64,000 bases of DNA from Escherichia coli. Its GTDB lineage: Bacteria; Pseudomonadota; Gammaproteobacteria; Enterobacterales; Enterobacteriaceae. The stretch lies in the NCBI RefSeq assembly GCF_022846255.1, contig NZ_AP025682.1. One strand, written 5' to 3'. A program made the translations under genes and the position numbers. A model generated the notes under the pieces. That model was given only the letters and a program-made list of their open reading frames with translations, was not told the origin of the DNA and searched no databases. Positions 13,718 through 20,770 of the stretch are shown here, piece by piece (the first letter of the stretch is position 1; each line of letters opens with the position of its first letter).

Positions 13718-15100
13718 TCAACCTGCCACGCTCCCCCACACCAGTTGCCCTTTATGGAACGTTGCGGTTCTCGGCGAGATACGCGCCACCGCCTCGGCGG
13801 AACAGGAGGCGTCCACCAGCACAAAGCTGGCGTCATCCTGCGCTTTAGGCCACACGCGCTCGCCTTTTTCGTTGAGCGGCAATACATCGCCAGTGGCTAA
13901 AAACAGCGAGCGGGAGAGGTTCTGTTCGTTAGGACGAATATAGAGCTGCGCGTACAGATTGGCTTTTTCCAGCATGTCGCCCAGGCCGTAAGGCGACCAG
14001 TGGTCGATAACGCTGTCGGTGCCGGTCATCACTTTTACGCCTTTGTCGTGCAACTGTTTGAGCGGCATATGCAGCGTGCCAATCGGTACCGTCGAGGCGA
14101 TAGAAATTTGCTGCGCCGCCATCCGGTGCGCCAGTTCATCTACCTGTTGTTCGTTGAGCGTTGCCAGCGCGAAGGCGTGGCTGATGGTCAGCTTGCCCTT
14201 CAGCTGTGGCGTTTTCTCTACCGTTTCAACCATATAATTGATGGCTGCCACGCCTGCCGGAGTGGTTTCGTGCAGGTGAATATCGACGCCTTTGTCGTAG
14301 TCCAGCGCAATCTGGAACATGGTGTCGAGGGATTTTTCCATCGCGCCATCGACACTGGTCGGGTCCAGCCCGCCGACGTAATGCGCGCCCGCCTGCATTG
14401 CTTCACGCATTAAAGGTTCCGATTTCGACAGCAGCAAACCGTGCTGCGGGAAGGCGACAATTTCACACTCGAAGCCCGCCTGACGTCGCGCCAGCACCGA
14501 CTGCAAATTTTGCAGATTTTTCAGGCCGGAAACCGGTTCGATATTGCAGTGGCTGCGGGCAATGGTGGTGCCTTTTGACTGCAATAAATCGATCAGTTTT
14601 TCCGCCCGTTCCTGAGTATATGGTTGCAGCTCCGGCAGCATTTTCTGCTCGAGTTTGATCATGTCCTGGATAGTGGTGCCTGCCGGACGATTGAGCGAGC
14701 GCCACGGCCCGCCGTAGAAGGTTTTATCGAGATGAATATGCATGTCGCGGGTGGTGGGCAGCATCAGCTTACCGCCAGCGTCATAGTGCGGCAGCGTGGC
14801 GTCCGGATGCTGCTTGTTCTCGCGCAGGGCAACAATTTTACCGTCCTGAATCTCCACGGTCTGGCGCGCCGTGCGGGTCTGTACCGCCACGCCATTTTCG
14901 TAGTCAAAACCGGTTTCCAGCAGCACGTTATCGAGATAGTAATGCGGGTCAGTGATTTTCATGGTGTTGTTCGCTTCGCAGTTTAGGGTGCCAGCTACCC
15001 CCGCATGGGCGAGCGGCACTGAGGGACCAAACAGCGCGGCGGCGGTAACCATCTTACCGCTCTGGCTCAGAAATTCACGGCGGCTATTGTTTTCTTTCAT
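13718..15100 (-). CDS. yahJ: Tat-exported amidohydrolase-superfamily deaminase
   Basis: 460-aa ORF with twin-arginine-like N-terminus (SRREFLSQSG) and HxH metal-binding motifs of amidohydrolases. Confidence 0.85.
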   Translation of the reverse strand: MKENNSRREFLSQSGKMVTAAALFGPSVPLAHAGVAGTLNCEANNTMKITDPHYYLDNVLLETGFDYENGVAVQTRTARQTVEIQDGKIVALRENKQHPDATLPHYDAGGKLMLPTTRDMHIHLDKTFYGGPWRSLNRPAGTTIQDMIKLEQKMLPELQPYTQERAEKLIDLLQSKGTTIARSHCNIEPVSGLKNLQNLQSVLARRQAGFECEIVAFPQHGLLLSKSEPLMREAMQAGAHYVGGLDPTSVDGAMEKSLDTMFQIALDYDKGVDIHLHETTPAGVAAINYMVETVEKTPQLKGKLTISHAFALATLNEQQVDELAHRMAAQQISIASTVPIGTLHMPLKQLHDKGVKVMTGTDSVIDHWSPYGLGDMLEKANLYAQLYIRPNEQNLSRSLFLATGDVLPLNEKGERVWPKAQDDASFVLVDASCSAEAVARISPRTATFHKGQLVWGSVAG

Positions 15101-15109
15101 CTTACGTCC

Positions 15110-16060
15110 TTAGGTTTTAATAATATGGGTGCCCGTTTCGCCGCGTAGCGCCGCAGGCAGGCATTCCGGCGTGGTGATAATCACTTCTTTGCCGCCTTGT
15201 TCCAGGAACGTCAGGCTGGCGATGATTTTTGGCAACATGCTGCCAGGTGGGAAATGCCCTTCCTGCATATAGCGGGTCATGGTGGCAATATCTACGCGAT
15301 CCAGCGCCTGCTGCTGCGGTTTGCCAAAGTGAATACACACTTTTTCGACGCCAGTGGTGATCACCAGAATGTCGGCGTGAATTTCGCGAGCCAGTAGCGC
15401 GGTAGAGAAATCTTTGTCGATAACCGCGTCCACGCTTTGGTAATCCCCCGCGTCAGTACGCACTACCGGAATTCCGCCGCCGCCCGCGCCAATCACCACA
15501 AAGCCTTGTTGGATCAGCGCCTTAATGGCAGGTGCTTCGACAATACGTTTCGGTTCCGGCGAGGCGACCACGCGGCGATAGCCCCGTCCGGCATCTTCAA
15601 CAAAACGCCAGTCAGGGTTTGCCTTTTGTAGTTCGTCACGCTGGCTTTCATTAAAGAATGCGCCAATGGGTTTGGTGGGATGAGCAAAACCCGGATCGTT
15701 TTTATCCACTTCCACCTGGGTCACCACGGTGACGGCTTTTTTCTCGCCATGACGCGCCAGTCGGTTGTTCAGCGCCTGCTGGATCAGATAGCCAATGCCA
15801 CCTTGCGTATCCGCCACACAGTTCGCCAGCGGCGTTAAGGGCAGCCCTTCGCGCTCGTGGGCAATCTCCGCGCGGCGTAAATCCAGCCCGACCTGCGGCC
15901 CGTTGCCGTGGGTCAGCACAATGTCGTAATCGGAAGCCAGCATTTCCAGCACCGTATCGGCCACGGCTTTCACCGCCTCCGCCTGATGCTCAATCGACTG
16001 GCTGGCGTTATCTTTGATAATGCTGTTGCCACCAATGGCAACGACCACAAGTTCTTTCAT
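15110..16060 (-). CDS. yahI: carbamate kinase paralogue
   Basis: 316-aa ORF beginning MKELVVVAIGGNSI..., carbamate kinase/amino-acid kinase family. Confidence 0.9.
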   Translation of the reverse strand: MKELVVVAIGGNSIIKDNASQSIEHQAEAVKAVADTVLEMLASDYDIVLTHGNGPQVGLDLRRAEIAHEREGLPLTPLANCVADTQGGIGYLIQQALNNRLARHGEKKAVTVVTQVEVDKNDPGFAHPTKPIGAFFNESQRDELQKANPDWRFVEDAGRGYRRVVASPEPKRIVEAPAIKALIQQGFVVIGAGGGGIPVVRTDAGDYQSVDAVIDKDFSTALLAREIHADILVITTGVEKVCIHFGKPQQQALDRVDIATMTRYMQEGHFPPGSMLPKIIASLTFLEQGGKEVIITTPECLPAALRGETGTHIIKT

Positions 16061-16104
16061 GTTGTTATGTCCGCGACAGAGGGTGATGGGGTTATGACCA
16101 ACGC

Positions 16105-19272: not shown

Positions 19273-20125
19273 AATTCCCTCCGTAGGTTTGACTCAGCGC
19301 ACAACCATCGGCCATGCCATACAGCATGTCGCAGCCGGAACTGGAGCCAATATGTTTAATTTTTTCTATTGCCTGAGTTGCGTTCCCAGGGATGTCATAA
19401 ATAATGTTGTGAATAAAACGATGAATATTTTCCCGGCAGCGTTGTTGTAATGCGGCTTCCAGCGTGATGGCACTTAATAACGTGGTATTATTTCTGCCGC
19501 GTTGCAAACCGAGATAAAATTCCTCTTTGTATTTTTCCGCCGGATGTCCGGAAATAAATAAAATAAGTACCAGTCCGGTCAGATAATCATCGGCTGATGG
19601 CGTAAGGCCAATCCCTAAGCCCATCATACTGGCGACTGCTGAGGCGATATTTTGTTTATCGTTTACGGCCTGAATAACTGCCCGTCGTTTAATATGTAGT
19701 TCTTTATTTAACGCCTGATAAAACGGATTATCGCCGCGATAATTAAACAGGGTTTCATTTTCCCCCAGGTGCTGATGAATAATGTCGTGCCACTGTTGCC
19801 AGGCGATAAGGTGAAAATTCACAGCGGTCATTTGCAAGGTTGGGGACAGCCAACGCCGACAACGACTCATCTCTATATGAAGATGTTGACCAACCGTAAT
19901 GCCTTGATCGTCAAACTGAACCTTATCACCATGCCGGAACAGACCATTAAAGTGAGTGAGTGCCAACCGACAACTGTTTGGCGCATTGTCGTACTCTTCA
20001 CAAAGCAGCGTTAGCAACTGCTGGCGAGCCGGGAGTGCGATATTTACCGCTCTGGCAAAGACCTGTTCAACCTGTCCTTGCCCCCGCTGCGCCAGAAAAT
20101 CAGCATCCGCAGTTAGCGCCCACAC
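19262..20125 (-). CDS. yahE: DUF2877 protein, YlbF paralogue
   Basis: 287-aa ORF in conserved synteny. Confidence 0.75.
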   Translation of the reverse strand: MWALTADADFLAQRGQGQVEQVFARAVNIALPARQQLLTLLCEEYDNAPNSCRLALTHFNGLFRHGDKVQFDDQGITVGQHLHIEMSRCRRWLSPTLQMTAVNFHLIAWQQWHDIIHQHLGENETLFNYRGDNPFYQALNKELHIKRRAVIQAVNDKQNIASAVASMMGLGIGLTPSADDYLTGLVLILFISGHPAEKYKEEFYLGLQRGRNNTTLLSAITLEAALQQRCRENIHRFIHNIIYDIPGNATQAIEKIKHIGSSSGCDMLYGMADGCALSQTYGGNYVS

Positions 20126-20164
20126 ACACCGTTTTTCTGGTGTGTTGATAGCAAGCCTCCCGGT

Positions 20165-20770
20165 TTATGCACCTGCGGCGATCAGCAACTGCGCAATCTC
20201 TTCAAAGCCCCGTTCCCGCGCCAGTTCCAGCGGCGTTTTGCCATATTTATCGGTCAGATGCGGGCTGGCACCGTGTTCCAGCAATAACTGGACAATCGCC
20301 TGCTGTTTAATCCCGCCATCGTTAAGCACAATCGCTTCCAGCAACGGTGTCCAGCCAACATGGTTAGTCTGGTTAACGTTAATCTCCGTATTTGCCAAAA
20401 GCTCTTTTACAATACTTAAATGGCCTTTTTCACAGGCAGGCGTCAGGCCGACACCGCCAAAACGGGTTACGCAATTAATATCGGGTTTAGCCGGTAAAAT
20501 AATTCGTAGTAGCGTTAAATCATCGTTCAGACAGCTAATTAAAAAAGGATTTAAACAGGTATGATCTTGTTTATTAATATTCGCTCCGGCGTCAATTAAT
20601 GCCTGAACGCAAGCATATTGCTGATATAAACTTGCCAGCGTAATTGCCGTTTTCCCCTGACGATCGCAGGTATTAATATCGACACCCAGCGCAAGGCAGA
20701 TTTTTACTTTATCGATATCCCCCTGTTGCGCAGCCAATAAATAGTCTGCAGGTAGATTTTTTATAGTCAT
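20165..20770 (-). CDS. yahD: ankyrin-repeat protein
   Basis: 201-aa ORF with repeated ankyrin-like G-TPL/ALxxGA motifs. Confidence 0.85.
   Translation of the reverse strand: MTIKNLPADYLLAAQQGDIDKVKICLALGVDINTCDRQGKTAITLASLYQQYACVQALIDAGANINKQDHTCLNPFLISCLNDDLTLLRIILPAKPDINCVTRFGGVGLTPACEKGHLSIVKELLANTEINVNQTNHVGWTPLLEAIVLNDGGIKQQAIVQLLLEHGASPHLTDKYGKTPLELARERGFEEIAQLLIAAGA

Follow-up and report, generated by a model that had tools for sequence, protein, structure and literature searches.

Purified AllFGH of Escherichia coli was shown in 2024 to be an oxamic transcarbamylase (OXTCase), which interconverts oxalurate plus phosphate and carbamoyl phosphate plus oxamate, and YbcF/AllK was shown to be the catabolic carbamate kinase (PMC11326118, PMC9843812). 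This enzyme type was defined only then and has one characterised member. The nearest uncharacterised relative of AllFGH in the best-studied bacterium is the yah operon, yahDEFGIJ, whose core enzyme is unusually conserved from Proteobacteria to Bacillota. The copy of the operon described here occupies positions 13718-20770 of a 64,000-nucleotide stretch of E. coli DNA (contig NZ_AP025682.1 of assembly GCF_022846255.1), which is referred to below as the window. We consider it reasonably probable (roughly 0.6) that yahDEFGIJ is a single operon controlled by the LysR-type regulator YahB and forms a catabolic, ATP-yielding ureide module parallel to allFGHK, one that probably yields ATP and ammonia from a urea-like compound.

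The AllFGH-AllK-AllS system and the yah genes share the same three subunit families and a carbamate kinase encoded in one operon, together with a paralogous LysR activator, and the chemistry, i.e. the phosphorolysis of an acylurea to carbamoyl phosphate and the conversion of the latter to ATP, is by analogy probably the same in Yah. The two systems differ in gene order (E-F-G-I in yah, F-G-H-K in all), in the approximately 55 extra N-terminal residues of YahG relative to AllG and the approximately 45 extra C-terminal residues of AllF relative to YahF, and in that Yah features an ankyrin protein, a deaminase with a twin-arginine translocation (Tat) signal and, in most species, a permease gene beside the enzyme genes, none of which is found in the all operon. 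Besides yah and all, E. coli has a third carbamate kinase-linked catabolic cluster, the ygeW-yqeA purine/urate cluster, with the carbamoyltransferase YgeW and the carbamate kinase YqeA. It likewise pairs its kinase with an amidohydrolase, and what it acts on long went unidentified; YgeW, however, is encoded by a single gene, has the classical aspartate/ornithine transcarbamylase (ATCase/OTCase) fold and is unrelated to the FdrA, DUF1116 and DUF2877 families. In the arginine deiminase pathway ArcA-ArcB-ArcC, a deiminase is followed by phosphorolysis of a ureido compound to carbamoyl phosphate, from which ATP is made by carbamate kinase. The logic is like that of the proposed Yah route, but the families are unrelated except for the kinase, and ArcB, unlike YahEFG, is an ornithine transcarbamylase of the classical type, with an alkylurea (citrulline) as its substrate. 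A further paralogous set of FdrA, DUF1116, DUF2877 and carbamate kinase genes, with its own permease and hydrolase, is present in the tkt1 island (GR29, strain BEN2908) of extraintestinal pathogenic E. coli (ExPEC). The DUF1116 protein of this set shares only 46% identity with YahG, the permease is a CodB-like NCS1 protein, the hydrolase is of the isochorismatase type, and no ankyrin gene is listed for it.

Yah proteins and their relatives

In BLASTP comparisons with AllF, AllG, AllH and AllK of K-12 as the reference, YahF is 39% identical to AllF (1e-102), YahG 45% to AllG (6e-119), YahE 24% to AllH (4e-10) and YahI 38% to AllK(YbcF) (2e-57). The initial annotation had taken the yah set for a paralogue of fdrA-ylbE-ylbF with its carbamate kinase, which these values bear out, similarity being seen for each of the pairs YahE/YlbF, YahF/FdrA and YahG/YlbE. 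The label "carbamoyltransferase-like" that it had attached to the family is experimentally grounded for the paralogue, because the activity of AllFGH was demonstrated with purified protein. The product families it had assigned (ankyrin, DUF2877, FdrA-like, DUF1116, carbamate kinase and amidohydrolase) are likewise upheld by NCBIfam and Pfam matches. YahF scores 492 bits against the FdrA subfamily model NF004760 (cut-off 433) and matches E. coli FdrA (PDB 3DMY) at 5e-83, and the Pfam domains HMA_AllF_N, CoA_binding and Ligase_CoA are recorded for its orthologues. YahG matches the Pfam family PF06545 (AllG/DUF1116) at 4.3e-89 and, over residues 58-463, PDB 3CLQ (an "uncharacterized protein") at 1.1e-195. 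YahE, the least conserved of the subunits, matches PF11392 (AllH/DUF2877) at 2.1e-28 and has the motifs GLGxGLTPSxDD and IGSSSGxDxLxG in common with AllH. YahI reaches 649 bits against the carbamate kinase subfamily NF009007 (cut-off 266) and 347.6 against the arcC equivalog TIGR00746, slightly under the cut-off of 358.25. All three AllFGH-type subunit families and a carbamate kinase are encoded in the yah cluster, with yahI running in the same direction as yahEFG and no terminator-like site found between them in a scan of the coding strand. Single-chain FdrA-DUF1116 fusions of approximately 1,000 amino acids (P0252, P0253, P0256, P0264 and others) are common among the representatives of the family, and they show that YahF and YahG act as one enzyme.

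The paralogy between yah and all extends to the regulator, as AllS is the best NCBIfam match of YahB (268 bits, the cut-off being 372), with PunR second, and the two proteins are 38% identical (4e-73); by these scores YahB is a paralogue of AllS and not AllS itself. In the literature YahB is listed only as uncharacterised. The yah genes go unmentioned in both papers on AllFGH and AllK (PMC11326118, PMC9843812), and in a search of the literature on the yah genes, DUF1116 and DUF2877 no paper on the function of the yah cluster came to light. Some RefSeq records already name YahG and YahE "AllG/AllH family", and the paralogy with all is thus already visible in current annotation.

Genetic data on the all operon bear on the relation between the two systems. 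Deletion mutants of E. coli lacking allF or allG produced no oxamate (PMC11326118), and, as the yah operon of K-12 is intact, Yah did not replace All under those conditions. When an allFGH deletion was supplied with allFG only (no allH) or with allGH only (no allF), oxamate amounted to 7% and 16%, respectively, of the wild-type level (PMC11326118, Table 3), and it is possible that substitution of YahE for AllH or of YahF for AllF explains this residual oxamate. For full OXTCase activity allH is required.

The amidohydrolase YahJ scores 717 bits against NCBIfam PRK06846 (cut-off 447), and among solved structures 6NBO and AtzC come closest to it, with CodA next. The catalytic set of CodA is kept in YahJ (H121/H123, the substrate-binding Q219, H275/E278, H308 and D362), giving the active-site pattern HxH, Gln, HxxE, His, Asp that is also that of AtzC (N-isopropylammelide isopropylaminohydrolase) and CodA (cytosine/isoguanine deaminase). 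Despite the conserved catalytic residues, identification of YahJ as CodA was ruled out by its score of 103.6 bits against the best cytosine deaminase model, far under the cut-off of 438, and YahJ is predicted to work like a CodA-type deaminase without being CodA. CodA is cytoplasmic. The N-terminus of YahJ, MKENNSRREFLSQSGKMVTAAALFGPSVPLAHA followed by G after the cleavage point, combines the twin-arginine motif SRREFL with a hydrophobic stretch and an A-x-A cleavage site. The twin-arginine motif recurs as SRRHFL or GRREFL in the orthologues of Pasteurella and Providencia. Tat export, as proposed by the initial annotation, accordingly stands as a prediction, and with such a signal YahJ, unlike CodA, should act in the periplasm. 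YahJ is on a list of predicted Tat substrates, and its deletion in an ExPEC strain gave a competitive index of 0.70 in mice (PMC7549933).

Yah-type clusters in other bacteria and in E. coli

A scan of 100,044 species genomes returned 473 stretches encoding close relatives, of which the best 80 loci were read; almost all of these are from Enterobacterales, and 71 of them include both flanks. Identity to YahG stands at 88% (Aeromonas), 78% (Janthinobacterium) and 76% (Brevibacillus). One full-length representative covers the entire YahG clade in a library clustered at 50% identity, the next full-length relatives being at most 49% identical, and the wider DUF1116 family has 570 representatives at E <= 1e-30. 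Judged by these identities, the Yah type is a tight and widespread orthogroup. The consensus arrangement in the best 80 loci is a divergent yahB followed by yahD-yahE-yahF-yahG, a gene for a 517-aa membrane protein, yahI and yahJ, and the order yahD-(yahE)-yahF-yahG-(permease)-yahI-yahJ is found in all 71 species loci with both flanks. yahJ is present in each of the 71 species loci with room for it, and wherever an Enterobacterales locus extends over the upstream flank, yahB is linked to yahD in divergent orientation.

Clusters outside the Enterobacterales share this core but vary in composition. Janthinobacterium and Aeromonas allosaccharophila have ankyrin-E-F-G-permease-carbamate kinase and a LysR gene, with no yahJ; in Pasteurella the permease gene is divergent from ankyrin-E-F-G-carbamate kinase-LysR-YahJ-like, the product of the last being 48% identical to YahJ and carrying the SRRHFL motif. 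The LysR-family genes adjoining these three clusters stand on other sides than yahB does. In Bosea a PucR gene precedes permease-(ankyrin-TPR)-E-F-G-carbamate kinase, and a gene close by encodes a cytoplasmic amidohydrolase from a related subfamily. All four Bacillota loci examined have E-F-G beside an NCS1 allantoin-permease-like carrier and a deaminase of the cytidine deaminase (CDA) fold, and three of the four have PucR upstream, three an ankyrin or ankyrin-TPR protein and three a called carbamate kinase. The parts that recur are YahF, YahG, usually YahE, and the permease, nearly always accompanied by the ankyrin protein and carbamate kinase: the kinase is linked in all Yah-type loci read but that of Sporosarcina (L098), and every locus inspected but that of Paenibacillus fonticola (L097) has a gene for an ankyrin or ankyrin-TPR protein. 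Most loci read also encode a deaminase, which comes from two unrelated folds, the YahJ type in Proteobacteria and the CDA fold in Bacillota.

The subunit gene yahE is cleanly absent from 25 of the 80 species loci, found in Enterobacter, Leclercia, Lelliottia, Silvania, Huaxiibacter, Aeromonas cavernicola and Serratia sp. DD3 (L036-L038, L041-L043, L045-L054, L056-L060, L062, L063, L066 and L083); in L041 approximately 140 bp of non-coding DNA remains between yahD and yahF, with a hairpin after yahD. The DUF2877 subunit is in that respect dispensable in 25 Yah-type species, which sets the Yah type apart from the all system. Its absence agrees with the 7% of wild-type oxamate that allFG alone yields.

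A gene for the 517-aa protein lies between yahG and yahI in 55 of the 71 species loci. The protein, labelled "xanthine permease" or "AGZA family" in the source records, has no sequence match in Pfam, NCBIfam or the PDB, and its AlphaFold model (predicted local distance difference test score, pLDDT, 83.9) has a predicted 14-helix fold of the 7+7 inverted-repeat type. A Foldseek search with the model returned SVCT1, BicA, SLC26Dg, UraA, AZG2 and UapA at a probability of 1.00 and query-normalised template modelling (TM) scores of ~0.45-0.52, and from this modelled fold the protein would be a permease for a nucleobase-like compound or a small anion. The window has no such gene; its exact site is occupied by a gap filled with repetitive extragenic palindromic (REP) elements.

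The permease-less form is shared by Escherichia, Pseudocitrobacter, Kluyvera, Citrobacter amalonaticus, Raoultella and Klebsiella spallanzanii, and in it the membrane protein gene yahC lies between yahB and yahD. Among the 71 loci with both flanks, 16 have only yahC and 55 only the permease gene, none having both and none neither. As the permease-less genera share near-identical clusters, the swap was probably one evolutionary event and not 16 independent ones. The E. coli cluster is a derived form without the permease, a point that goes beyond the initial annotation. The ratio of nonsynonymous to synonymous substitution (dN/dS) is 0.03-0.28 for all six genes and yahB in comparisons with C. 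amalonaticus, Kluyvera and Raoultella, a value of 0.77 for E. albertii yahF having been excluded as an apparent artefact of coding-sequence extraction; these values indicate purifying selection, and thus a permease-less form that is not decaying.

Spread sampling indicates that most of the 5,426 complete E. coli genomes have the cluster, a few of them with internal deletions. A count of 3,111 of the 5,426 was rejected as a sign of variable presence, because the REP gap splits alignments and K-12 itself scores 66%. A second Yah-type module, flanked by insertion sequences (IS), occurs in 142 of these genomes (2.6%), with the order LysR-ankyrin-DUF2877-FdrA-DUF1116-permease-carbamate kinase and no yahJ. 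It was placed 106 times on IncF plasmids and 46 times in chromosomal islands, examples being L091 (3107-11540, on pMTY1886_IncF) and L092 (on the chromosome of E. coli strain 104).

Outside the Yah clade, the gene for an AtzD/TrzD-family ring-opening amidohydrolase precedes a sister DUF1116/FdrA pair (L095, 6614-10428) whose DUF1116 protein has 48% identity to YahG, and another such pair (L096, 2879-10136) adjoins genes for a dihydropyrimidinase/hydantoinase-like enzyme, an M20 peptidase and ferredoxin-like proteins. Members of the AtzD/TrzD family open the ring of cyanuric acid or barbiturate, giving carboxybiuret or ureidomalonate, and each of these products is an acylurea.

Proposed route and alternative readings

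A route analogous to that of All, from an N-carbamoyl compound through carbamoyl phosphate to ATP, had been suggested in the initial annotation, and homology and context lend support to the analogy: YahB is a paralogue of AllS, carbamate kinase is linked in all loci read but one, and sister DUF1116 clades adjoin ring-opening amidohydrolases that would produce ureides, as the tkt1-island set adjoins its isochorismatase-type hydrolase. Also in favour of the route are the constant gene order, the FdrA-DUF1116 fusions, the recurrence of deaminases of different folds, the 7+7 fold of the permease model, the lack of internal promoter-like or terminator-like sites in the scans, the conserved palindrome upstream of yahD and the low dN/dS values. 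The chemistry of the paralogue and the neighbours of the sister clades also support an acylurea, so that the substrate class is most likely an N-acylurea, while oxalurate derived from allantoin is probably not the Yah substrate. Gene content, homology, synteny, the Tat motif, the catalytic residues of YahJ, purifying selection and the palindrome are direct observations; from them we infer the reaction, its direction, the order of the compartments and the roles of YahD, YahE and YahC as follows. YahJ, exported in a folded state by the Tat system as a metalloenzyme, would act in the periplasm on an amidine resembling cytosine or ammelide, from which it would strip an amino or alkylamino group. 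The product, or the original compound where YahJ is absent, would then be imported, mostly by the dedicated permease of the 7+7 fold and in Escherichia by another carrier instead, perhaps YahC. In the step that would follow, YahF-YahG together with YahE would split the N-acylurea with phosphate to carbamoyl phosphate and an amide, the same chemistry as in the conversion of oxalurate and phosphate to carbamoyl phosphate and oxamate. The ankyrin protein YahD would probably act as a scaffold in this step; scaffolding or channelling of the labile carbamoyl phosphate by this protein is a guess. YahI would finally transfer the phosphate to ADP, giving ATP and carbamate, the latter decaying to NH3 and CO2.

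It has to be noted that several observations weigh against this assignment as an ATP-yielding ureide module. The E. coli operon lacks a permease of its own, and the 7+7 fold of the permease modelled for the other species fails to separate nucleobase from anion carriers. A ring-opening hydrolase is encoded in no Yah-type locus read, which leaves no enzyme to connect a deaminated heterocycle with an open-chain ureide; the imported compound would have to be such a ureide already, or its ring would have to open unaided or by the action of an enzyme from outside the cluster. yahE is missing in 25 species, though the paralogous allH is needed for full OXTCase activity, and the weak defect of the yahJ deletion in mice is the only functional datum on any yah gene. 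OXTCase was assayed in the synthetic direction, from oxamate and carbamoyl phosphate to oxalurate (PMC11326118, PMC9843812), which makes the direction of the Yah reaction in vivo an assumption. The failure of yah to complement the all mutants could moreover simply reflect absent yah expression.

Since every subunit, the kinase and the regulator have paralogues in the all system, YahEFG could alternatively be a redundant isozyme that phosphorolyses not the oxalurate of the allantoin route but exogenous oxalurate or that formed from precursors such as parabanate and oxidised purine products, with uptake and regulation of its own. An oxalurate transporter is lacking in the all operon, whereas Yah-type clusters carry a permease; the permease model finds some of its best fold matches in SLC26-type anion carriers, one of which has been solved in an oxalate-bound state, and the Bacillota loci contain PucR regulators and allantoin-permease-like NCS1 carriers. 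The identity of the Yah to the All proteins (24-45%) is, however, far exceeded by the conservation within the Yah clade across phyla (at least ~65-76%), which argues for a distinct and constrained Yah specificity; the allF and allG deletion mutants are free of oxamate although the yah operon of K-12 is intact (PMC11326118), and the use of oxalurate calls for neither the recurring deaminases nor the ankyrin partner, all of which makes such redundancy doubtful. The reversibility of OXTCase, measured as formation of oxalurate (PMC11326118, PMC9843812), also admits a synthetic direction, in which YahI would make carbamoyl phosphate from ATP and carbamate and YahEFG would carbamoylate an imported amide or amine, in detoxification or in the formation of a ureido metabolite. 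This is improbable in view of the permease, deaminase and LysR/PucR context, which is typical of catabolism, of the catabolic nature of the AllFGH paralogue, and of the finding that oxalurate, the sole acylurea characterised for this enzyme type, is split in vivo (PMC11326118, PMC9843812).

Two further explanations appear still less probable. The name "acyl-CoA synthetase FdrA" given by the NCBI Prokaryotic Genome Annotation Pipeline (PGAP), the CoA_binding and Ligase_CoA domains of YahF and its match to the alpha subunit of succinyl-CoA synthetase (4e-20) would suit an acyl-CoA synthetase of the nucleoside diphosphate (NDP)-forming type, made of YahF and YahG and acting on an organic acid released by YahJ, with the carbamate kinase being incidental. 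Purified AllFGH, however, shows transcarbamylase activity (PMC11326118, PMC9843812), the phosphohistidine of SucD aligns with an Ile in both YahF and AllF (the alignment being tentative there), and carbamate kinase is linked in all Yah-type loci read but one. A comparison of YahG with SucC revealed no similarity, on which grounds a mimicry of the succinyl-CoA synthetase alpha and beta subunits by FdrA and DUF1116 proteins was rejected, and a role of this kind is highly unlikely. It is just as hard to credit that the E. coli cluster is a cryptic remnant whose pathway was disabled by loss of the permease and whose genes are heading to decay. The permease gene of the 55 species loci has indeed been replaced by REP elements, all yah genes belong to the y-ome, i.e. 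are without a known phenotype, and a few genomes have deletions inside the cluster, but the six ORFs (open reading frames) are intact and of K-12 length, the cluster is kept in most of the 5,426 complete genomes and under purifying selection (dN/dS 0.03-0.28) across the genera sharing the permease-less form, and the yahJ deletion gives a small fitness defect in mice (PMC7549933).

The catabolic ureide module parallel to allFGHK can tentatively be taken further, to a reading that may well turn out wrong, in which the Yah type is a distinct, horizontally mobile and phylum-spanning pathway for a ureide that has so far escaped notice as a bacterial nutrient, with the ankyrin protein as an integral subunit or scaffold, and constitutes a third route to ATP through carbamoyl phosphate. 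Candidates for its ureide would be malonurate, carboxybiuret-like acylureas and biuret from guanylurea, as well as products of oxidised or aza-substituted purines and pyrimidines. If true, E. coli and many gut and soil bacteria would gain a third independent route of substrate-level phosphorylation. Identification of the substrate would take the six genes, yahB and yahC out of the E. coli y-ome, would define the substrate range of a new class of transcarbamylases and would possibly expose an overlooked source of nitrogen and energy in the gut, urine or soil.

Gene inventory, candidate operator and flanking DNA

The interval studied runs exactly from the stop codon of yahJ to the start codon of yahD, with every ORF on the minus strand (Table 1). 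The window is chromosomal E. coli DNA, and this region of it is 99.4% identical to many E. coli chromosomes with the same six annotated genes, and all six are intact, their ORF lengths being those of the K-12 annotation. Seven co-directional, partly overlapping genes had been described in the initial annotation. The common direction stands, but there are six real genes, the "seventh" being yahH of K-12, and overlaps exist only between yahE and yahF (11 nt) and between yahF and yahG (1 nt, shared by the yahF stop and the yahG start); the other three junctions are gaps of 39 nt (yahD-yahE), 246 nt (yahG-yahI) and 9 nt (yahI-yahJ). Consensus scans of the coding strand found no promoter-like or terminator-like sites inside the cluster, and nothing above the shuffled expectation.

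Table 1. Features of the yah region and their positions in the window
Feature	Position	Strand	Length	Description	Match or remark
yahD	20770..20165	-	201 aa	ankyrin-repeat protein	ankyrin matches; first gene of the operon
yahE	20125..19262	-	287 aa	AllH/DUF2877 subunit	PF11392; GTG start
yahF	19272..17725	-	515 aa	AllF/FdrA-like subunit	NF004760
yahG	17725..16307	-	472 aa	AllG/DUF1116 subunit	PF06545
yahI	16060..15110	-	316 aa	carbamate kinase	NF009007
yahJ	15100..13718	-	460 aa	Tat-signal amidohydrolase, cytosine deaminase/AtzC type	PRK06846
REP/BIME units	16110..16283	no strand		two in tandem	fill the yahG-yahI gap
candidate YahB (LysR) operator	20874..20894	-		palindrome	124 nt upstream of the yahD ATG
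yahC	21028..21525	+	165 aa	DUF1097 membrane protein	Pfam 3.5e-26; divergent from yahD
yahB	21617..22549	+	310 aa	LysR-type regulator	AllS paralogue

The yahG-yahI gap (16061-16306) contains two tandem 93-bp units of REP elements, or bacterial interspersed mosaic elements (BIME), seen as an 81-nt direct repeat at 16110-16190 and 16203-16283 with a spacing of 93 and 93% identity. The median E. coli genome has 32 places that match these sequences, and the ORFs within the gap are all REP-coded. yahH was ruled out as a seventh gene, as the K-12 ORF of that name runs through the REP repeats and is merely REP-coded. The paper on the y-ome describes yahH as "filled with REP23 sites", and the PGAP annotation of a matching strain calls no gene in the gap.

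The DNA upstream of yahD contains a perfect palindrome, TTGTTGAA-CATCA-TTCAACAA, with a T-N11-A core. In nearly all Enterobacterales and Aeromonas loci the arms of TTGTTGAA-N5-TTCAACAA are conserved while the 5-nt spacer is free, and the palindrome usually lies 117-135 nt upstream of the yahD start, the distance reaching ~200 nt in Providencia, Proteus and a small number of other loci. Conserved arms with a free spacer are the pattern expected of a LysR operator, to which YahB would be the protein predicted to bind. The region upstream of allF showed no palindrome of the yahD type. Approximately 300 nt upstream of yahD, many loci without yahC share a second conserved motif, GTTTTGAAC...TTTAACAC.

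In a filamentation screen by over-expression in uropathogenic E. coli (UPEC), a 17-fold enrichment was seen for a clone that covers 361,550-364,162 of strain UTI89, with yahD, yahE and the beginning of yahF (PMC6206680). Downstream of yahJ, positions 9500-13717 of the window encode a sugar ABC transporter with a binding protein of the autoinducer-2 (AI-2) type and an ASCH-domain protein, where K-12 has yahK; the arrangement is common to approximately 2,200 genomes, and the junction is strain-variable.

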